Of a DNA stretch of 26,651 nucleotides, positions 9,709 to 24,254 are shown in pieces. This stretch comes from a virus (lineage: Duplodnaviria > Heunggongvirae > Uroviricota > Caudoviricetes): IMG/VR virus record IMGVR_UViG_2609459847_000005, one strand, 5' to 3'. Every line of letters starts with the position of its first letter. Positions within the stretch are counted from its first letter, which is position 1. Position numbers and translations under genes: made by a program. The notes beneath the pieces are model-generated. The model saw only the letters and a program-made list of their open reading frames with translations, did not search any database and was not told the origin of the DNA.

Positions 9709-11475
9709 ATGAACACCACACTGACACCCGCAGATCTCGATCCCCGTCGGCAGGCCATGCTGCTGTACTTTCAGGGATACCGCGTAGCCCGCATTGCTGA
9801 AATGCTGGGCGAGAAAGTTGCAACCGTTCACAGCTGGAAAAAACGCGACAAGTGGGGTGACTATGGGCCGCTGGATCAGATGCAGCTCACCACCGCCGCC
9901 CGCTACTGCCAGCTCATTATGAAGGAGCACAAAGAAGGGAAAGATTTCAAAGAAATTGACCTGCTGGCGCGCCAGTCGGAGCGCCACGCGCGGATCGGCA
10001 AGTTTAACAATGGCGGCAACGAAGCCGACTTAAACCCTAACGTCGCCAACCGCAACAAAGGGCCGCGCCGTCAGCCGGAAAAGAATGTTTTCACCGATGA
10101 ACAGATTGAGAAGCTGGAAGAAATCTTCCATTCCTCCATGTTCAACTACCAGCGCCACTGGTGGGAAGCCGGAAAAACCAATCGCATCCGCAACCTGCTG
10201 AAGTCTCGCCAGATCGGCGCGACCTTTTACTTTGCCCGTGAAGCCCTGATTGACGCCCTGCTGACCGGACGTAACCAGATTTTCCTTTCCGCCAGTAAGG
10301 CACAGGCCCACGTCTTTAAGCAGTACATCATCGACTTCGCCAAAGAAGTGGATGTGGAACTGAAAGGCGATCCGATGGTGCTTCCTAACGGGGCCACGCT
10401 TTACTTCCTCGGCACCAATGCCCGCACGGCCCAGAGTTACCACGGCAACCTGTATCTGGATGAATATTTCTGGATACCGAAATTCCAGGAGCTGCGCAAA
10501 GTGGCTTCCGGTATGGCTATTCACAAAAAATGGCGACAAACCTATTTTTCCACGCCATCCAGCCTGACACACAGTGCTTATCCGTTCTGGTCCGGTGCGC
10601 TGTTCAACCGAGGGCGCAACAAAGCCGATAAGGTGGACATCGACCTGTCCCACAGCAATCTGGCCCCCGGCCTGCTGTGCGCAGACGGGCAGTACCGCCA
10701 GATAGTCACCGTGGAAGATGCGGTGCGCGGCGGCTGTAACCTGTTCGACCTTGACCAGTTGCGCATGGAGTACAGCCCGGACGAATACCAGAACCTGCTG
10801 ATGTGCGAGTTCGTGGACGATCTCGCGTCCGTGTTCCCGCTCAGCGAGCTGCAGGCGTGCATGGTGGACAGTTGGGAAGTCTGGACCGACTTTCATGCAC
10901 TGGCCCTGCGCCCGTTTGGCTGGCGCGAAGTGTGGATCGGATATGACCCGGCGAAAGGTACGCAGAACGGCGACAGCGCCGGATGCGTGGTGGTGGCGCC
11001 GCCAGCCGTGCCGGGCGGTAAGTTCCGCATTCTTGAGCGTCACCAGTGGCGCGGAATGGACTTCCGCGCCCAGGCTGACGCCATCAAAAAACTGACCGAA
11101 CAGTACAACGTGACCTATATCGGTATCGACTCAACCGGCGTTGGTCACGGGGTTTACGAGAACGTGAAAGCGTTTTTTCCTGCCGTCCGGGAGTTTGTCT
11201 ACAACCCCAACGTTAAAAACGCCCTGGTACTCAAGGCCTACGACATTATCAGCCACCGCCGTCTGGAGTTTGACGCCGGACACACCGACATAGCGCAGTC
11301 CTTTATGGCAATCCGTCGCGCCACCACCGCCAGTGGCAACCGCCCGACCTATGAAGCCAGCCGCAGCGAAGAAGCCAGCCACGCCGATCTGGCCTGGGCA
11401 ACGATGCACGCACTGTTTAACGAACCGCTGCAGGGCGAATCCGCCAATACCAGCAATATTGTGGAGATTTTTTGA
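9709..11475 (+). CDS. P: Terminase large (ATPase) subunit (P2 gpP-like)
   Basis: 588-aa ORF (P2 P 590 aa); divergent from O; stop overlaps the Q start. Confidence 0.9.
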   Translation: MNTTLTPADLDPRRQAMLLYFQGYRVARIAEMLGEKVATVHSWKKRDKWGDYGPLDQMQLTTAARYCQLIMKEHKEGKDFKEIDLLARQSERHARIGKFNNGGNEADLNPNVANRNKGPRRQPEKNVFTDEQIEKLEEIFHSSMFNYQRHWWEAGKTNRIRNLLKSRQIGATFYFAREALIDALLTGRNQIFLSASKAQAHVFKQYIIDFAKEVDVELKGDPMVLPNGATLYFLGTNARTAQSYHGNLYLDEYFWIPKFQELRKVASGMAIHKKWRQTYFSTPSSLTHSAYPFWSGALFNRGRNKADKVDIDLSHSNLAPGLLCADGQYRQIVTVEDAVRGGCNLFDLDQLRMEYSPDEYQNLLMCEFVDDLASVFPLSELQACMVDSWEVWTDFHALALRPFGWREVWIGYDPAKGTQNGDSAGCVVVAPPAVPGGKFRILERHQWRGMDFRAQADAIKKLTEQYNVTYIGIDSTGVGHGVYENVKAFFPAVREFVYNPNVKNALVLKAYDIISHRRLEFDAGHTDIAQSFMAIRRATTASGNRPTYEASRSEEASHADLAWATMHALFNEPLQGESANTSNIVEIF

Positions 11476-12509
11476 TGGGAAAGAGTAAGAAGAACCGCGC
11501 TGCGGCGACGAAACAGATCCAGCTTAAAAGTCAAACTACAGCCGAAGCATTCAGCTTCGGCGATCCCGTTCCTGTTCTGGACCGCCGAGAACTGCTGGAT
11601 TATGTGGAATGCGTACAGATGGACCGCTGGTATGAGCCGCCCGTCAGCTTTGACGGACTGGCGCGCACCTTCCGCGCTGCCGTGCATCATAGTTCCCCGA
11701 TTGCAGTAAAGTGCAACATTCTGACCAGCACCTACATCCCTCACCCGCTGCTCAGCCAGCAGGCTTTTTCGCGTTTTGTGCAGGACTATCTGGTTTTTGG
11801 TAACGCCTACCTGGAGAAACGCACGAACCGCTTCGGTGAAGTTATCGCCCTTGAGCCTGCACTGGCAAAATACACCCGACGCGGGTTAGACCTGGATACC
11901 TACTGGTTTGTGCAATACGGTATGACAACCCAGCCGTATCAGTTCACGAAAGGCAGCATTTTTCATCTGATGGAACCGGATATTAATCAGGAGATCTACG
12001 GCCTGCCCGGTTATCTTTCTGCCATTCCGTCAGCCCTGCTCAACGAGTCCGCCACGCTGTTCCGTCGCAAGTATTACATTAACGGCAGTCATGCGGGCTT
12101 TATCATGTACATGACCGATGCCGCGCAAAACCAGGAGGATGTGAACAACCTCCGCAATGCGATGAAAAGCGCCAAAGGTCCAGGCAACTTCCGCAACCTG
12201 TTTATGTACTCGCCTAACGGCAAAAAAGACGGGCTTCAGATCATCCCATTGTCAGAAGTCGCGGCGAAGGATGAGTTTTTGAATATCAAAAATGTCAGCC
12301 GCGACGACATGATGGCTGCGCACCGCGTGCCGCCGCAAATGATGGGGATTATGCCTAATAATGTTGGAGGGTTTGGGGATGTGGAGAAGGCTAGTCGCGT
12401 ATTTGTACGTAATGAATTAACGCCCTTGCAAAAAAGGCTACAAGAGCTGAACGACTGGCTGGGCGAAGAAGTGATTAAATTTACGCCCTATATTCTTTCA
12501 GAAGAATAA
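11475..12509 (+). CDS. Q: Portal protein (P2 gpQ-like)
   Basis: ORF 11472..12509; first track codon is TTG, second is ATG at 11475, overlapping the P stop (TGATG); 344 aa, matching P2 Q. Confidence 0.9.
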   Translation: MGKSKKNRAAATKQIQLKSQTTAEAFSFGDPVPVLDRRELLDYVECVQMDRWYEPPVSFDGLARTFRAAVHHSSPIAVKCNILTSTYIPHPLLSQQAFSRFVQDYLVFGNAYLEKRTNRFGEVIALEPALAKYTRRGLDLDTYWFVQYGMTTQPYQFTKGSIFHLMEPDINQEIYGLPGYLSAIPSALLNESATLFRRKYYINGSHAGFIMYMTDAAQNQEDVNNLRNAMKSAKGPGNFRNLFMYSPNGKKDGLQIIPLSEVAAKDEFLNIKNVSRDDMMAAHRVPPQMMGIMPNNVGGFGDVEKASRVFVRNELTPLQKRLQELNDWLGEEVIKFTPYILSEE

Positions 12510-12517
12510 TTCCGAAC

Positions 12518-13216
12518 TTATTTGTTTCTTCTTTGTTCACGCCTTGTCTTGGCTTCGATAAGGCGTTGAGGTTCAGTGTAAAGCCGTTCTAAAAAAAGAT
12601 AGGTAAAATCTTCAAGATCCTCAGCAGCAGCTTTATCCAAAATACCTTCATGCGCTCCATCATTTCCGTCATCTTTAACGCATTCAGCTAGTTCCCTTAA
12701 AGCTTCAGGCAGTAGATGATTATCAAATAACCACTCCATTCTTAACCCTAGGCTTCTCCTTATTTTTTGCGCAGGCCCTTGCTCCCCATCAGGAAGAAGT
12801 CCTTTTGTGGCATAATCAAGGCAAAGCCTAAACATGGTTGCTGCTGCATTATAACAACCTATAGCCAAACATTTCGCCCCTTCCTCATATGCACTATTGA
12901 TATGCTCAGGTAAGAACTCTGGTGGCTCCTCTACTGCTAAGTCTGCCGGTGATATAGGCCTAACAACCTCTGCAACTTCCTTTAAGCCGAATATTCCACT
13001 TTCCCAATTATAGCCATCTAAAGTTTTATTTTTCGTTAAAGGTCTGCAAAGAAACATTGTCGTTTTATGACACTCTCGGCAAACACAATAGACCTCGTAC
13101 TCGTATGTTTTACCCCCGCCCAATGCATTGTAAACCCTAGTGCAATTCAGCCCATTAACATCAAACGCTATTTTTTGTGATCCACATCGTGGACAGTCAT
13201 CCACTAACATAACCAT
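12518..13216 (-). CDS. Hypothetical protein (232 aa): N-terminal zinc ribbon plus C-terminal alpha-helical domain (HEPN/DUF4145-like?)
   Basis: Strong GGGAGGAG Shine-Dalgarno before ATG 13216. N-terminus has CPRCGS...C..CVCRECH (Cys4-type ribbon); C-terminal region has GNDGAH (an NxxxH motif) in a predicted helical domain. AT-rich; sits between the Q 3' end and the putative cos site. Confidence 0.75.
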   Translation of the reverse strand: MVMLVDDCPRCGSQKIAFDVNGLNCTRVYNALGGGKTYEYEVYCVCRECHKTTMFLCRPLTKNKTLDGYNWESGIFGLKEVAEVVRPISPADLAVEEPPEFLPEHINSAYEEGAKCLAIGCYNAAATMFRLCLDYATKGLLPDGEQGPAQKIRRSLGLRMEWLFDNHLLPEALRELAECVKDDGNDGAHEGILDKAAAEDLEDFTYLFLERLYTEPQRLIEAKTRREQRRNK

Positions 13217-13317: not shown

Positions 13318-13345
13318 GAGCGCGCGCTCGTATCCCCGCCACGCC
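13318..13345. other. Candidate cos site with adjacent 12-bp perfect palindrome
   Basis: Reverse complement of 13327..13345 is GGCGTGGCGGGGATACGAG; the first 13 nt match the 186-type cohesive end as I recall it (GGCGTGGCGGGGAAAGCAT). Palindrome GAGCGCGCGCTC at 13318..13329. Location between Q and the old/tin-equivalent region fits P2-family genome organisation. Confidence 0.5.
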
Positions 13346-13390
13346 TGCCCGCTTTATGTAGTGGTTTTCATGCGCCTGCATGACATAAGC

Positions 13391-13414
13391 AAAAGCCCGC
13401 CATTCCTAGCGGGC
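13391..13414 (-). terminator. Rho-independent terminator candidate for the minus-strand cargo operon
   Basis: Minus strand reads GCCCGC-taggaatg-GCGGGC followed by TTTT; about 90 nt downstream of the 203-aa gene stop. Confidence 0.55.
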
Positions 13415-13505
13415 CTCAGCTAAAACGATCCTCAAACGATCATGCGGATTCATGCGGCATAGACATGCACAATCGCCAAAGCGGGCATCGAGACTTTTTG
13501 GAAAA

Positions 13506-14117
13506 CTACGTAACCACAGTTAATGTGTGCATCCTGTCTCGAATTGCATCACACGTCTCATCAAAAAGCTTGGTGATGGTTGTACGGTTCAACTCTGCCT
13601 CTTTCCAATAATTTTGCCAGTCAAATTCTGGATCGCCATGCTGAAACGATATTGACTCTGAAAGGCATTCCTTCCGGAAACGGTCCAAGATTATATAAAC
13701 CTCTGGTGAGATGAACGGTTTGTTAGACTCAACACTTGTAACAAAAGTATTAAATGCATCGAAAAAAACTTTCAACCTTCTAAATTTTCTCTCTTCAAAT
13801 GGTTCGTTGGGGTCAAAATGATCCAGCGCAGGCCTCAGCTTAAGCACGCTTTCTCTGGTTTCAAACATCGAATTCCAAATGAGACTATATGCTGATAACT
13901 CCTTATCAAAATACGCTTTCGTTACATAAACAGAATTGTCTAACTTAGCCTTTATTCTTTCATTAGTTGCACTCAGTTGTGATTGAAATTCAGCAATATC
14001 TTTGTTTAGCCGCGACTTATATCTTTCTAAATAAACTTTCCCGATCCAAACAAATATGCCAGATGCAACAAAAGACACCCCACCCAACGAAGCCAGAATT
14101 TTAAAGACTAAATCCAT
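13506..14117 (-). CDS. Hypothetical membrane-anchored protein (203 aa)
   Basis: ATG 14117 preceded by AGGTGGGGG; N-terminal TM helix (ILASLGGVSFVASGIFVWIGKVY) followed by a charged, helix-rich soluble domain; AT-rich; no recognisable domain. Confidence 0.75.
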   Translation of the reverse strand: MDLVFKILASLGGVSFVASGIFVWIGKVYLERYKSRLNKDIAEFQSQLSATNERIKAKLDNSVYVTKAYFDKELSAYSLIWNSMFETRESVLKLRPALDHFDPNEPFEERKFRRLKVFFDAFNTFVTSVESNKPFISPEVYIILDRFRKECLSESISFQHGDPEFDWQNYWKEAELNRTTITKLFDETCDAIRDRMHTLTVVT

Positions 14118-14165
14118 TGCGCCCCCACCTGCAAAAATAGTATTCCATTATAAGCTAATACATTT

Positions 14166-14426
14166 TTAATCAAACAGGGAATAATTCGCGTCAACCTCAT
14201 CACTTCTCTGCTCTACCCTGGTGACTTCCATCAAAAACTCCAGGCCGTCATATAGCGAAACGGGGAATTCCAGCTCAAGCCAGAAGCAGTCTTCATAGGT
14301 GCGGCCCAACCAAAAACCTCCGCCACACTCCTTTGGGCGTTGAAAGAAGACCCAGCCGCCAGGGGTAAACCGTTCCAGCACCTGGCCCCGATAAATAATC
14401 TGGTGATTACTGTCTTTTTTACCCAT
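14166..14426 (-). CDS. Hypothetical small protein (86 aa)
   Basis: ORF 14166..14477 starts at TTG; internal ATG at 14426 (MGKKDSNHQIIYRGQ...) preferred. Lies between the DinI-like gene and the TM protein gene. Coding status moderately supported. Confidence 0.5.
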   Translation of the reverse strand: MGKKDSNHQIIYRGQVLERFTPGGWVFFQRPKECGGGFWLGRTYEDCFWLELEFPVSLYDGLEFLMEVTRVEQRSDEVDANYSLFD

Positions 14427-14499
14427 GGCTAACGCCTCGCTACTCTCGTTGTTCAACCTTGCTGACGTCAGAATCAAGTTCTTACATCAGGAACGTTCC

Positions 14500-14733
14500 T
14501 TAGTGCAGCCAGCTGTCGTCTTCCCAAACCTGCTGCATAATTTCCATCACCCGCTTTTTGTCTTCATCAAGCTTTAAGCCACTCAGCTCAACGCCGTTTG
14601 CCGACCCTTTACGGATGCGGATAGCTGTCTTGGGATAGATGGGTTGCAGGTTGCGGTAAAGCTCGGACTCCAGAGCGTCCAGGGTAGACTGGCTAATCTT
14701 CTGCTCTTTATCGATCATTATTTCAATGCGCAT
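14500..14733 (-). CDS. DinI-family protein (Tum-like antirepressor C-terminal module)
   Basis: Start moved to internal ATG 14733 with GAGGTG Shine-Dalgarno; MRIEIMIDKEQKISQSTLDALESELYRNLQPIYPKTAIRIRKGSANGVELSGLKLDEDKKRVMEIMQQVWEDDSW resembles E. coli DinI (MRIEVTIAK...ETWESADDWF). It is downstream of LexA boxes, as for the 186 tum gene. Confidence 0.8.
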   Translation of the reverse strand: MRIEIMIDKEQKISQSTLDALESELYRNLQPIYPKTAIRIRKGSANGVELSGLKLDEDKKRVMEIMQQVWEDDSWLH

Positions 14734-14743
14734 AAAAGTCACC

Positions 14744-14932
14744 TCAGCTGATGACATCCATTGAGCGGTTGTATTCGTGGGTTCTGATTTTTGCCATGAG
14801 TTCATCTGTCAGTTCAGAAACCCACTGCAGGGCCAGCCCCTTCTCTTCATCACTACACTCACTAGCCGCTACAAGCTTAAGAAAAAAATCAATGCGCTGG
14901 AGCTTCAAAGACTCCAAAAAATAGTCCTGCAT
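14744..14932 (-). CDS. Small protein (62 aa) upstream of the DinI-like gene; possible N-terminal part of a split tum-like module
   Basis: ATG 14932 with AGGAGGAA Shine-Dalgarno; first gene downstream of the LexA-box promoter; 11-nt gap to the DinI-like gene. Confidence 0.65.
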   Translation of the reverse strand: MQDYFLESLKLQRIDFFLKLVAASECSDEEKGLALQWVSELTDELMAKIRTHEYNRSMDVIS

Positions 14933-14959: not shown

Positions 14960-14990
14960 CTGTATACATAACCACTGTTTATATTTACAG
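14960..14990 (-). promoter_or_regulatory. LexA operators (SOS boxes) overlapping the promoter of the tum-like operon
   Basis: CTGTTTATATTTACAG at 14975..14990 is a perfect CTGT-N8-ACAG box; the adjacent CTGTATACATAACCAC (14960..14975) is a weaker second box; both are just upstream of the 62-aa gene start. Confidence 0.75.
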
Positions 14991-15084: not shown

Positions 15085-17499
15085 TTAATACAGGTTCCGC
15101 CATTTATCATCCTCCTGCAGACGCTGGTTCCGATAGAAGATACGCAGGCCTGCTCCTGACGGAATACTGCCGCCGCGAAGGAGTAAATCGACCTCTTTCT
15201 CGCTGCCATCAAATCCTCTGGACTTCAGTTCATAGACGAGCTGCTGTCGCTGATGATCTGTAATTCGCTGTTTGTAGTCTTTACGCCGTTTCGGTTTAAC
15301 CAGGCGTAACCTTGCTGCCAGTTCCCGGCGCTCTTTTTTGCTCATACTGTGCAGGTAATCGTGCAATTCCTTGTCATCCATGCGGGTGATTTCCGTTCTG
15401 GTATCCCCATCAGCTGATTTGTCTTTCCCTTGTTGGTTCAAATTTTCAGCAAGGGGACAGTTATTGCCACGAGTCCAAGGGGCGCAAGCGCCCTGGTCGG
15501 CTGCCGCCTCCTGAACGTCAACGGCTTTACGAACCATTTTCCACTTCACTGCATGAGTGCAGATCTTGCCCTCTGCAATGGGTGACCAGATGCCATAAAT
15601 ACGAATGCCGTGATCGCCATAGGCGGTCGGCTCTTCGTTGATTTCATAAGCGGTTCTGATGAGGTGATATTTACGGGGAACCAGTACGCCGCCCTGCTTC
15701 ATGATGTAGGTGGCAAAACAACCAGCATCAGCAGCAGCCAGAATGGCATCAAGACGCGGGTTATCCAGTACCGGCGCACCTACTTTTTTGTCACCCTGTT
15801 GCCTTGCCGCCTGACCAGCCAGCAAGCGAAGTTCACGGTAAGCCTGACGCCCCGGAATACCAAAGAAGCGGAATTGCTGAACACGATGCAGAGACGCCCA
15901 GGCATTCACGTATTCAGCGTTATCACGCAGAGATTTACCCGTTTCCTTGCTGATCTCGCCAGCCAGACCACGACCGTCAATGTTCTTACTGATATATTTC
16001 GCGATGTAGCTTGTCGGCGTTCCTTTGCGCGGGTTAATCAACTCAGACTTAAAGCGCGGCCCAGTGTTATTGCCCAGCTCCTCGCGGTCTTCACGGGTGG
16101 CAAACTTACGCAGTAATGCAGTGATGGCACGGCGGTCTTTTTTGCGCATGAAACACAACAGGTGCCAGTGAACGGGGCCGTCATGATGCGGCTCAGCCCC
16201 CCGCACGCCATACCAGCGCAACCCGGCTTTGTGCATCGCCTTACGAAATGCAGCAAACATGCCGACCAGATAATCGCTGCTTTGTCTTACCGTCGCGTTT
16301 GTCCAGGTCGGGTTTGGTCTGCCGTTATTTAGCGTGGAATGGAAACGCGACGGACAGGTGATAGTGTAGAAAACGGCGCAGTCACCGCGCATTTCCGCGA
16401 TAAGCTCCAGACCTTTAACACAGGCCATCATCTCATTGCGGCGATGCGCAGGGTTGCTGCTGCTGGCGTTTACCACATCCTCCATGTCCAGCGTGTCGCC
16501 GTCTTCGTTCACCAGTTCATGAGAACGGAAAAACTCCAGCGACTTACGGCGCTGCTCACGTTTATGCATCACGGCTTCATAGCTGACATAAGGAGATGCT
16601 TTTTTGCTGACCAGGCAAACAGCGCGCAACTGCTCTTCCCGCCATTCGCAACGCATCTTCCATAATTTCCGATACCACCAGTCGCCGCACAACATACGCG
16701 CCAGCGAACCCGGAATGAGTTCATAGGGCACGGGTTTACGGCGGTTTCTTTTCCGACGGAGTTGCTCAAACGCAGGTGGGATGACATCCAGACGCAGGGT
16801 TTCCGCCGCCACCTTTTCCCATGTCTTGCGGATTTCTTCTGGCTTAACGTCATCGGTGGCATACAAATCGCCACAAGCTGCATCAAGGCACATGCTCATA
16901 TGCGCAGCTACCAGGGTGGACAGGCGTTTCACATGATCCTGACTCATTTCAGGCAGGATCAGCAGGCCGTCCAGCCCTTCATGGCTTGCCATAAAGCGAA
17001 AAGAAGTGGATAGCTGACTCTCGCGTACATGCTCCAGTCGTTCCAGACATGGCTTAATCGTCTCACGCAAATAGCGGGAATAAGCCTTTGGCCTGCCCAG
17101 GCTGCTGAAGTATTCAATACGTTGCATCAGCGGCTTGCTGATATGGGAAGGCTGGGCGTTGACGTCCGCCAGAATGACCATATCCGGATTAAAACGCTGC
17201 TGCTCATGCGCCAGCTTTGCCCGGCTAATGAGCTTATCCTGCTCCATTTCGCGCTGGACAGGATCACGGGATTCATTAAAGAAATAACGCTCCCAGACCT
17301 GATCACTCAGTGCCTCGCGGCGCAGTTGTTCCTGCTCGTTATCGGCAGCGTACAGAGTGATCAGGTTTGAAAGCGCAGAAACCGGCGCAACTTCTGCCGG
17401 GTCCAGATAAGGGTTAATAGCCTTTTTCGGGCTGTCCCATGAGAATGCTGCGGCGGCCTCGTTAAAGCCGCTGCAGTTGTTCATATCAGCATGGCTCAT
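15085..17499 (-). CDS. A: Replication initiation endonuclease (P2 gpA-like rolling-circle Rep)
   Basis: 804-aa ORF; HUH-type motif (PVHWHLLCF) and tyrosine-containing [12 protein letters not shown]; ATG overlaps the dam stop; P2 A is about 761 aa. Confidence 0.9.
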
Positions 17500-22325: not shown

Positions 22326-24059
22326 CTACTCAAGGAGATATTCTAACTCATCTTTTATCGGGATAATTTGCTCATAAAGTCGGTGATATGACTTCCCAAT
22401 TGCGCCTCTAAATTGTATTAACTTTGGTGGCTTACTACCTATATTAATAATATGGTCTTGAGCTATACCTGGGTAGGGATCAATAAATACAATTTCAGAT
22501 ATACCTAACTGATAAGCTTTTTTCGCACACAACTCACAGGGACTGGCAGTTGTATACAACTTCCCCCCCAGAACGCCAATACCACCATATTTTGCAAGTT
22601 GTAAAAATGCGTTTTCCTCAGCATGTAATGCACGTGTATGAACTTGATTACCTTTTTTCTCTTTATCAAGATCATTATGTATATCTTTAAAACAATAAGA
22701 TAAGTTCCTGCCTCTATAAATATCACCAGTTTTATCTATCGCCCTAAAATTTAAGAGTTTCTCATTAGCTTTAATTCTGAAAGAACTATTATTTCTCTCA
22801 TAATGACTGTACGTTTTTTCATCAAAATCGTTCATTAGGCCATCTAGAGATCTCATAGAGCAAGGAATCTGACCGTTGGCAACATCATTCCAACCAACTG
22901 ATTTTATTGAATTATCACCATCAGTTACTACAGCTCCCACCTGTCTAGATATACAGCCAGAGTTTAATTTTACCGTATACGCAACTTGCATAACCCTTTC
23001 CATTGCAGTAGGTGTTATCAGACCAGGATGCTTCATCAGTGCGATGTACCACGCTAATTGTGCTTTTAAAATATTGTCATTATCAAATTCATTTTTTGGG
23101 TTAAAAATGTGTATATCTGATAGTTCAATACATTTAGTTACATTTGGATTGGTGAGATGTTTGTAAGAGTTATCACCTTTACCTGACTCTACAGAATCTA
23201 TTTCCTCTATCTGCTTTTCTGAAAACTTATGTAGTTTCCGCAAATAGTTTGTTCGATGTTCATCTGGGGCATTTATTGACATTAAATGAAATGCAGAATA
23301 TCTATCCTTAAAAAATTTTGCCTCATATGGATTTCTAATAGCATCTATGACAATTAATGCGTTATCTCTTTTGCTTTTTCTTATTAATTTAATAACCCTA
23401 TTAATAGTTTCCGGCAAATGAAAAACAGATTTAGGCATAAACTCTTTATCTTCAAAATCGACTTCAATACGCCCACGACGTCTAATTGACTTACCTGCTA
23501 ACTGATAGGCTGAAACATATAAATTTGAGTTTATCTCATTTAGTTCAGCTTTGAATTCTTTAGTAAATTTTCTAACTAACTTCAAAATTGATATAAATTT
23601 ATTAATCGTTTTTTCATCAAACTTCAATTCACTATTATGATCAAGCAAATTCTCAATTACATTTTTAAATCTTGTCAAAATGAGATTATCTGAGAATACA
23701 CCAAAAGTTAATACAATATCTAAATGCTCTTTACTGATAAATTTATTAGATGATAGAATGAATTCAGAAGCTTCCTCAACTGTTAACATCAGAAGATACG
23801 CTGAGATTAGGTCACTCACCTTAATTGAGTAAAAATTTTCCCAGTGATTTTCTGCGAATTTTTTAACTATATTATAACGATGGACATCCAATCCCTTGTA
23901 AAACCCCTGTAATTTACTTACATCAGGGAAGACTGTTTTTTCGTTTTCAAGAATATTAGCTGTTGTTGTGCAACCAGAACCAGTTCGACCTGTCAAACCG
24001 ACTAAAATAAACTGCCCATTTTCAAGGAAAAGCTCACTAACGAATTTTTTTTCTTTCAT
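22326..24059 (-). CDS. P-loop NTPase / dCMP-dCTP deaminase fusion (AvcD/DCD-like nucleotide-depletion defence protein)
   Basis: 577 aa from ATG 24059 (track ORF starts at GTG 24062). N-terminal P-loop region with non-canonical Walker A (GLTGRTGSGCTT, no Lys) and Walker-B-like LIVID. C-terminal cytidine/dCMP deaminase signatures (RQVGAVV...GWN; HAEENA; PCELC zinc-binding motifs). Strongly AT-rich relative to the phage backbone. Confidence 0.8.
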   Translation of the reverse strand: MKEKKFVSELFLENGQFILVGLTGRTGSGCTTTANILENEKTVFPDVSKLQGFYKGLDVHRYNIVKKFAENHWENFYSIKVSDLISAYLLMLTVEEASEFILSSNKFISKEHLDIVLTFGVFSDNLILTRFKNVIENLLDHNSELKFDEKTINKFISILKLVRKFTKEFKAELNEINSNLYVSAYQLAGKSIRRRGRIEVDFEDKEFMPKSVFHLPETINRVIKLIRKSKRDNALIVIDAIRNPYEAKFFKDRYSAFHLMSINAPDEHRTNYLRKLHKFSEKQIEEIDSVESGKGDNSYKHLTNPNVTKCIELSDIHIFNPKNEFDNDNILKAQLAWYIALMKHPGLITPTAMERVMQVAYTVKLNSGCISRQVGAVVTDGDNSIKSVGWNDVANGQIPCSMRSLDGLMNDFDEKTYSHYERNNSSFRIKANEKLLNFRAIDKTGDIYRGRNLSYCFKDIHNDLDKEKKGNQVHTRALHAEENAFLQLAKYGGIGVLGGKLYTTASPCELCAKKAYQLGISEIVFIDPYPGIAQDHIINIGSKPPKLIQFRGAIGKSYHRLYEQIIPIKDELEYLLE

Positions 24060-24254
24060 CACGTCCCACTTATGAATGCAAGAACAATTAGCATATTAAT
24101 TATAATTTATTAACTAATTTTATTCTAGATGCTTGATGTAATGGCGGCACTTTGGCGGCAGAGCATTAAAAACGCGTAAGACGAGCAAATACAAAATAAC
24201 ACTAACACATTGTTTTCAAACATAATCTACTGTTTTTACTATAATAAAAATGGT

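Follow-up and report, generated by a model that had tools for sequence, protein, structure and literature searches.

A stand-alone cargo gene for a predicted membrane-anchored protein next to cos in the P2/186-like Escherichia phage Cartapus

Do the two small genes that lie between the SOS module and the cos site of a P2/186-like prophage form a two-gene system, and what might they do? The question is raised by a 26,651-nucleotide stretch of DNA (IMG/VR record IMGVR_UViG_2609459847_000005; hereafter the window, to which all unspecified coordinates refer), which corresponds at 100% identity to Escherichia phage Cartapus (NC_070909; Peduoviridae, Elveevirus), a P2/186-like prophage in adherent-invasive E. 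coli LF82. The genes encode proteins of 86 and 203 amino acids (aa), and an initial annotation, made from the sequence, had read them as a membrane protein with a small partner, possibly co-transcribed from the SOS promoter. We find that the 203-aa gene is a self-expressed, selectively maintained single-gene insert that is independent of the 86-aa gene, and that an anti-phage role is likely for its product.

The 203-aa gene is a self-expressed insert independent of the 86-aa gene

The two genes, and the promoter proposed here for the second, are as follows.

13506–14117, minus strand: 203-aa gene (LF82_789 / CARTA_47 / WP_000366628), an open reading frame (ORF) and the actual cargo gene
14166–14426, minus strand: 86-aa gene (LF82_790 / WP_000516592, phrog_2100), an ORF and the third gene of the SOS operon
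14147–14173, minus strand: putative promoter of the 203-aa gene, overlapping the stop codon of the 86-aa gene

Both ORFs are annotated with identical limits in RefSeq and GenBank, and both genes are real, being transcribed in LF82 (PMC9928086 S1 Table) and having numerous homologues each; begun at an upstream TTG at 14477, the 86-aa ORF becomes 103 aa. The order on the minus strand is gpA, LexA box, a 62-aa ORF, a DinI-family gene, the 86-aa gene, the 203-aa gene, a terminator hairpin, cos and a DUF4145 gene. The initial description of two AT-rich genes applies to the 203-aa gene (38.6% GC; 38.7% at third codon positions) but not to the 86-aa gene, which at 49.8% GC sits at the window mean of 49.6%.

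In their re-analysis of LF82 RNA-seq data, Misson et al. 2023 (PMC9928086) singled out LF82_789 as one of two Cartapus morons, with transcription 7-fold over the prophage background, and the coordinates given for it (2759532–2760143) identify it as the 203-aa gene. Expression across the locus (PMC9928086 S1 Table) is listed below as approximate log2(fpkm+5), where fpkm stands for fragment counts normalised to transcript length in kilobases and to millions of mapped reads, in the order LB / B1 / B6 / macrophage 1 h / macrophage 6 h.

203-aa gene: 5.5 / 7.2 / 8.6 / 9.0 / 10.5
86-aa gene: 3.2 / 3.4 / 2.7 / 5.0 / 7.6
DinI-family gene: 3.0 / 4.4 / 3.7 / 7.9 / 9.2
62-aa gene: 4.3 / 5.5 / 4.4 / 9.9 / 10.9
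DUF4145 gene: 4.7 / 7.1 / 7.6 / 9.2 / 9.6
gpA: ~2.6 in every condition

As can be seen, the 203-aa transcript exceeds that of the 86-aa gene by 5-fold to >50-fold, and does so in all five conditions. The 62-aa, DinI and 86-aa genes act as one operon, since they are silent in culture and jointly induced in macrophages, the interior of which has been described as genotoxic and SOS-inducing (PMC9928086); the 62-aa gene is ~64-fold up in macrophages relative to LB, and the transcript level falls along the operon from this gene to the 86-aa gene. Because the 203-aa gene always lies above the gene upstream of it, it needs a promoter of its own, and co-transcription from the SOS promoter, as had been proposed, does not hold. 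SOS read-through into the 203-aa gene is possible in part, yet insufficient for the level that is reached. The putative promoter consists of a perfect −10 element (TATAAT, 14147–14152) and a −35-like element (TTGATT, 14168–14173) separated by a suboptimal 15-nt spacer, and the block is kept between E. coli and Enterobacter prophages (alignment A2, columns 470–510). A consensus promoter scan limited to 16–18-nt spacers did not report this candidate, for which reason we infer the exact hexamers only tentatively.

The two genes point the same way and are separated by 48 nt, they were already neighbours before the E. coli and Enterobacter lineages parted, and both transcripts go up in the SOS-inducing macrophage condition, all of which would fit a functional pair. 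Against this, at least two independent losses have removed the 86-aa gene and left the 203-aa gene intact, and the idea of a membrane protein plus small partner has to be given up. A nonsense codon at position 15 interrupts the 86-aa gene of E. coli CUVET24-CCU22 and SBF45, where the adjoining 203-aa gene is intact, and in five Enterobacter-type prophages (our loci L003–L007) the 86-aa gene has no start codon and contains, in addition, a frameshift and an in-frame stop, DinI being deleted as well. The 203-aa orthologue of these five loci is intact at 83% identity, and comparison with the Enterobacter-type orthologues returns a dN/dS of 0.12–0.14 at a dS of 0.72–0.83, that is, purifying selection on the 203-aa gene. 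Each family is also found without the other. The 86-aa family (phrog_2100) follows DinI in Klebsiella phage ST13-OXA48phi12.1 and occurs in the ea region of P22-like Salmonella phages and in SSU5-like phage-plasmids, in each case without a 203-aa gene, and no member of the 86-aa family accompanies the 203-aa family in any of the distant contexts looked at. Among the 38 neighbours of distant 203-aa family members (ten loci), no family recurs as a partner. The gap in transcript level and a difference in GC of 11 points likewise speak against pairing, and the 203-aa and 86-aa genes do not form a unit.

The insert measures ~690 bp, is AT-rich and sits between the SOS operon and a conserved terminator–cos backbone.

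13388–13421, minus strand: intrinsic terminator hairpin with T-run (−22.9 kcal/mol, z −3.68)
13327–13345, minus strand: cos cohesive-end 19-mer, GGCGTGGCGGGGATACGAG

The hairpin had been counted as part of a two-gene cassette. It proves to be cos-proximal backbone: the ~130 bp from ~13473 to cos, hairpin included, are common to E. coli phage 500465-1 and to Klebsiella phage ST11-OXA245phi3.1, which carry neither the 86-aa nor the 203-aa gene, and 70 further complete E. coli genomes match this stretch alone. Judged from the sequence comparison the cos assignment is secure, as the Cartapus 19-mer and that of phage 186 (GGCGTGGCGGGGAAAGCAT, positions 1–19 of the 186 record) agree in their first 13 bases and the alignment of the 186 right end to the window runs exactly to 13346, the base before the cos 19-mer; homology with the Enterobacter prophages ends ~10 nt beyond cos. 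LexA box, DinI gene, hairpin and cos are all located where the initial annotation had put them.

The 203-aa gene has the hallmarks of a moron. It is transcribed in the lysogen 7-fold over background and at least 5-fold over its upstream gene with gpA at background, its GC content is atypical (38.6% vs 49.6%), and its presence in relatives is patchy. A putative promoter, the conserved TATAAT with its weak −35, lies upstream; the terminator belongs to the shared backbone and not to the insert. Of 5,426 complete E. coli genomes, 41 carry the gene; of 50,697 phage records, only Cartapus does. A decayed copy (~91% identity, multiple frameshifts) is seen in E. coli O157-type 2015C-3121 and other Shiga toxin-producing E. 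coli (locus L002, 5921–6810), where the remnant, lying in a degraded island with insertion sequence (IS) elements and an integrase fragment, also takes in the backbone next to cos and the final codons of the 86-aa gene.

The 203-aa protein and its family

Analysis of the 203-aa protein by hydrophobicity profile and AlphaFold2 (AF2) model bears out the initial description of a single N-terminal transmembrane (TM) helix followed by a helical domain. The one TM segment spans residues ~7–25 (Kyte–Doolittle 2.02) and contains glycine, and the remainder is modeled as all-helical (predicted local distance difference test score, pLDDT, 82.6) with helices at residues 2–92, 107–131, 138–160 and 167–202. 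A single N-terminal TM segment is found in 85 of 89 aligned family members and a second hydrophobic 19-mer in one. Lysine and arginine together average 0.5 before the TM segment against 3.2 over the 15 residues that follow, the latter count being the higher in 84 of the 89, and by the positive-inside rule the bundle should therefore be cytoplasmic, with ~6 residues outside. We thus predict an inner-membrane anchored, N-out/C-in protein carrying a cytoplasmic four-helix bundle.

An exhaustive profile search (E ≤ 1e-3) returned at least 918 representative clusters at 50% identity, ranging from Proteobacteria to Firmicutes and Verrucomicrobiota and including marine, soil and Gram-positive elements; most of the matches listed are ~200 aa long and aligned over nearly their full length. 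In the 89-member alignment E73, P134 and R195 are invariant, and F70, W81, L94, R95, P96, F135, E154, I192 and R193 near-invariant. That the protein resembles nothing recognised, as had been noted at the outset, stands: it has no Pfam, PADLOC or named PHROG match. Searches of the 86-aa and 203-aa proteins against Pfam, PADLOC, PHROGs and NCBIfam yielded unnamed PHROGs only, the 89 family members gave no consistent Pfam match, and the family profile found no match among PDB sequences. PADLOC-DB 2.0 gave 0 matches for the Cartapus protein and scattered weak ones (E 1e-4 or worse) for the 89 members, and homology to any annotated PHROG or PADLOC model was not detected. In some RefSeq E. coli genomes (e.g., L031, 1627–2238) the protein is labeled 'valyl-tRNA synthetase'; this label is an artefact that goes back to a coiled-coil match to Val_tRNA-synt_C below the threshold (16.7 bits vs a cut-off of 25.9).

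Structural neighbours were weighed individually. The four-helix-bundle sensors (4k0d, 2d4u, 3i9w; chemoreceptors and histidine kinases) are periplasmic and continue into a second TM segment and signalling modules, whereas the 203-aa protein has a single TM segment and nothing after the bundle, which is predicted to lie in the cytoplasm. A 4HB_MCP/histidine-kinase sensor was therefore rejected, there being no Pfam 4HB_MCP match, a second hydrophobic segment in 1 of 89 members and a predicted cytoplasmic location in 84 of 89. Csx28, the membrane pore accessory of type VI-B CRISPR (PDB 8gi1), ranked 40th among generic helical bundles at 11% identity. Csx28-like pore effectors are marked by an oligomeric pore and by dependence on Cas13b; no cas13b or other conserved partner is found near 203-aa family members, and assignment to this group was rejected. 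An OLD-family nuclease was rejected too, since neither the 86-aa nor the 203-aa protein has a match to ATPase, TOPRIM or other known defence domains (Pfam, PADLOC) and the latter is all-helical with a TM segment.

The genomic surroundings of distant members were looked up singly at ten loci, with 38 neighbours in total. One member comes directly after AlpA, another directly after the integrase of a satellite-like element that also carries genes for a D5 primase and a capsid protein, and a third is among the cargo of an element with integrase and Prim-Pol. Others adjoin the cI region of Pseudomonas phage Riah, lie between the terminase genes of Clostridium phage Maintenon or are carried on one Lactiplantibacillus plasmid. 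Members are further found beside SLATT_5, DUF4411 with a Peptidase_M78 protein, Abi_alpha and T5orf172/MUG113. PADLOC, run on the 38 neighbours, reported PD-Lambda-1 (E 5e-95), reverse transcriptase (RT)-associated SLATT, RmrA-like and capP-like proteins and the candidates PDC-S47 and PDC-S57. The neighbourhood of distant family members is defence-island-like. On three independent metagenomic contigs (L015–L017, member P0087) the same unannotated 171-aa gene follows the family member, a pairing seen in no other locus; the longest of these has a SLATT_5 gene upstream and an IS200-type transposase gene downstream.

What the 203-aa gene may do

The reading we tentatively favor is that the 203-aa gene is a stand-alone moron with an anti-phage role, preferably that of a membrane-tethered sensor–effector. 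The N-terminal glycine-containing helix would anchor the protein in the inner membrane, and the cytoplasmic four-helix bundle, bearing invariant E73, P134 and R195 and near-invariant R95, P96, E154 and R193, would detect a phage cue at the inner membrane face. The 203-aa proteins would then assemble via their TM helices and disturb the membrane, and the outcome would be of the abortive-infection type, with the lysogen protected against other phages. A sensor–effector is preferred over an entry blocker because most of the protein is predicted to lie in the cytoplasm, its core is conserved across phyla and members reside in chromosomal defence-type islands. Generalized to the family, which no catalogue of defence systems includes, this becomes single-gene, membrane-tethered immunity in which the bundle senses infection and the helix forms a membrane lesion, a partner-free analogue of the Csx28 type; in this wider form we consider it possible, if rather unlikely.

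Several points weigh against an anti-phage sensor–effector. The family is not in PADLOC, and the N-out/C-in topology is a prediction from the positive-inside rule. The sample of defence contexts is small (10 loci, 38 neighbours) and comes without a matched control. The proposed promoter has a poor −35 element, and the ~30-fold rise of the 203-aa transcript in macrophages also fits a role in host adaptation.

The alternative that survives best is classical superinfection exclusion, in which a constitutive inner-membrane protein blocks genome entry or an early step and the cell survives, as reported for Orf97 of phage 186. The layout of 186 is A, p95 with its LexA site, tum, the partial terminator t95a, orf97, the terminator t95b and cos, and the database note to Orf97 (NP_052294) states that 'expression from plasmid blocks 186 infection'. 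Orf97 thus occupies the same slot between LexA-controlled tum/DinI and terminator–cos (L027, 2605–3336), has an N-terminal membrane anchor and is non-essential cargo. In Klebsiella relatives the DinI–cos slot contains a 280-aa multi-TM protein (L024, 2644–3486) or a 225-aa lipoprotein with lipobox LTGC (L026, 2701–3378), and in phage 500465-1 it is empty. The repeated presence of unrelated envelope proteins suggests a second cargo slot specialised for such proteins, one of which, Orf97, has a reported exclusion phenotype. On the analogy with Orf97, a non-lethal block at an early step would be nearly as likely as a sensor–effector.

The two proteins are nevertheless dissimilar. Orf97 has two N-terminal hydrophobic segments and a C-terminal region that is not a helical bundle, and its gene is the last of the p95 operon, reached from the SOS promoter by read-through of t95a, whereas the Cartapus gene is self-expressed. 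A homologous relationship was rejected on the basis of an hhalign comparison with the family profile (probability 0.4%, E 0.16).

Membrane proteins known to mediate superinfection exclusion include HK97 gp15, P22 SieA, lactococcal Sie2009 and T4 Imm. Like these, the 203-aa gene is a small prophage-borne single gene in a moron position, expressed in the lysogen and encoding a predicted membrane-anchored product; homologues close to the immunity end or the integrase end of temperate elements, and slot-mates in relatives that are all envelope proteins, fit exclusion as well. Unlike them, nearly the whole 203-aa protein is predicted to be cytoplasmic, and with ~6 residues outside it is unlikely to touch the tail tip of an incoming phage in the periplasm. 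Entry blockers are typically narrow and fast-evolving, but the present family counts at least 918 clusters, has a conserved cytoplasmic core across distant phyla and is also found in chromosomal defence-type islands. Taking these points together, we hold classical exclusion to be unlikely, though a serious contender.

Less probable again is a lysogenic-conversion gene for host physiology, for instance in envelope or stress adaptation of LF82 in macrophages. Transcription climbs from log2 5.5 in LB to 10.5 after 6 h in macrophages, the gene behaves as an autonomous moron, and a few members weakly resemble membrane-tethered helical proteins (LapA_dom, apolipoprotein-like repeats). However, the DUF4145 gene shows an equal rise, and the induction may therefore be general to AT-rich inserts and not specific to function; moreover, family members are found in elements of marine, soil and Gram-positive origin that have no link to host-cell invasion, and mobile-element and defence genes prevail in their surroundings. 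The two AT-rich cargo genes on either side of cos go up together from LB through cell culture to macrophages (~30-fold), with gpA and the late genes not activated, and one may speculate that H-NS-type silencing and its relief lie behind this joint rise.

A role in the phage life cycle, such as lysis timing or the membrane tethering of packaging or replication near cos, could be argued from the position of the gene next to cos, its predicted membrane-anchored product and the increase of its transcript when the SOS operon fires. We deem it very unlikely, as the gene is absent from nearly all related Peduoviridae, is expressed in the uninduced lysogen with gpA at background, and is also found in non-phage islands. 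Finally, the notion that the 86-aa and 203-aa genes constitute a two-component system, be it toxin/antitoxin or sensor/effector, under a shared LexA-controlled promoter is, given the independent losses and separate occurrences described above, extremely improbable.

Neighbouring genes and the two cargo slots around cos

The remaining features of the locus are listed here.

15085–17499, minus strand: gpA
14975–14990, strand not assigned: LexA box CTGTTTATATTTACAG, a perfect CTGT-N8-ACAG palindrome
14744–14932, minus strand: 62-aa gene (phrog_698), first gene of the SOS operon, identified as an ORF with a PHROG match
14500–14733, minus strand: DinI-family gene (77 aa), second gene of the SOS operon (PF06183, E 2e-24)
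12518–13216, minus strand: 232-aa DUF4145 gene (LF82_788; PF13643), between cos and the portal gene
11472–12509, plus strand: portal gene Q, beyond the DUF4145 gene

The Cartapus LexA box has the position of the LexA site in promoter p95 of phage 186. The DinI protein scores 86.1 bits against PF06183 (cut-off 24.2) and shares 43% identity with the C-terminal half of 186 Tum. Tum itself is a single 146-aa protein with a DinI-like C-terminal half, and the corresponding region of Cartapus is split into the 62-aa ORF and the DinI gene; the 62-aa ORF is without detectable similarity to the N-terminal part of Tum. As a BLASTP comparison with 186 Tum gave no alignment, the 62-aa ORF was rejected as a Tum homologue, and we call it tum-like by position only. 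A second perfect CTGT-N8-ACAG palindrome of the LexA type, CTGTCTAGATATACAG, is found at 22941–22956 (plus strand) within a 578-aa ORF (22326–24062); lying beyond the prophage integrase gene, it is probably in host flanking DNA.

The 86-aa product, the third member of the SOS operon, is a small soluble α/β protein and not a partner of the 203-aa gene; we regard it as a separate, dispensable, SOS-induced accessory protein. Identification as a DUF2829/Tad2 anti-Thoeris protein was considered, since one source gives the homologue P0074 that name, and was rejected in the absence of a Pfam DUF2829 match or a Tad2-like fold. The 86-aa family found no match among PDB sequence profiles, and 34 of its members scanned singly against the family libraries gave nothing consistent.

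On the other side of cos lies the DUF4145 gene, a third accessory gene that was missing from the initial account and is a neighbour, not a member, of the proposed unit. Its product scores 30.3 bits against PF13643 (cut-off 23.1) and matches PADLOC PD-T7-4 weakly (E 1.2e-6, part of the model covered), and we consider it the likeliest classical defence gene of Cartapus. Its N-terminal segment is cysteine-rich and zinc-ribbon-like, and the gene is expressed 3.7-fold over background in the lysogen and reaches log2 9.6 in macrophages. In relatives this portal-side slot contains AIPR, a retron-type RT with STM3845, an OLD-like ATPase, AAA_21 with RloB, TIR or ASCH-type genes. The accessions of the 203-aa and DUF4145 proteins are absent from the DefensePredictor supplements searched.

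Assignment of the cargo genes to the old/tin hotspot of P2 proved correct in part. They do lie in the interval from gpA to gpQ that holds old and tin in P2, but in close relatives the fast-swapping, old/tin-type cargo sits across cos: the 203-aa gene stays on the gpA side while the portal-side cargo changes. That the genes belong to the gpA-to-gpQ accessory region of a P2/186-like phage is supported by the list of P2 hotspot loci of Rousset et al. 2022 (PMC9122126), Table S5A of which contains this very arrangement (WP_001154434, DinI, WP_000516592, WP_000366628 and DUF4145). A full-text search for protein accessions found none in the papers searched, the mentions found being solely this locus list and the LF82 transcriptome table; the locus is therefore already catalogued and its expression already published. 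An Rfam scan of the whole window returned no match to RNA families.

An SOS-controlled membrane protein and its small partner as a new two-component system thus does not hold. What is new here is the recognition of a large family of single-TM proteins that has gone unannotated and may plausibly act against phages; the 203-aa protein would be its first member with expression data. With LF82_789 already known to be expressed and strongly up in macrophages, the gene is directly testable in LF82. For the accessory map of P2/186-like phages our analysis means that two cargo slots flank cos, a gpA-side slot with repeated envelope proteins (Orf97, the Cartapus 203-aa protein, the Klebsiella phage lipoprotein and the multi-TM protein) and a portal-side slot with fast-swapping classical defence systems. 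Should the 203-aa protein turn out to exclude or abort phages, the defence catalogue would gain a widespread one-gene membrane system that is invisible to current detection (PADLOC models, Pfam).

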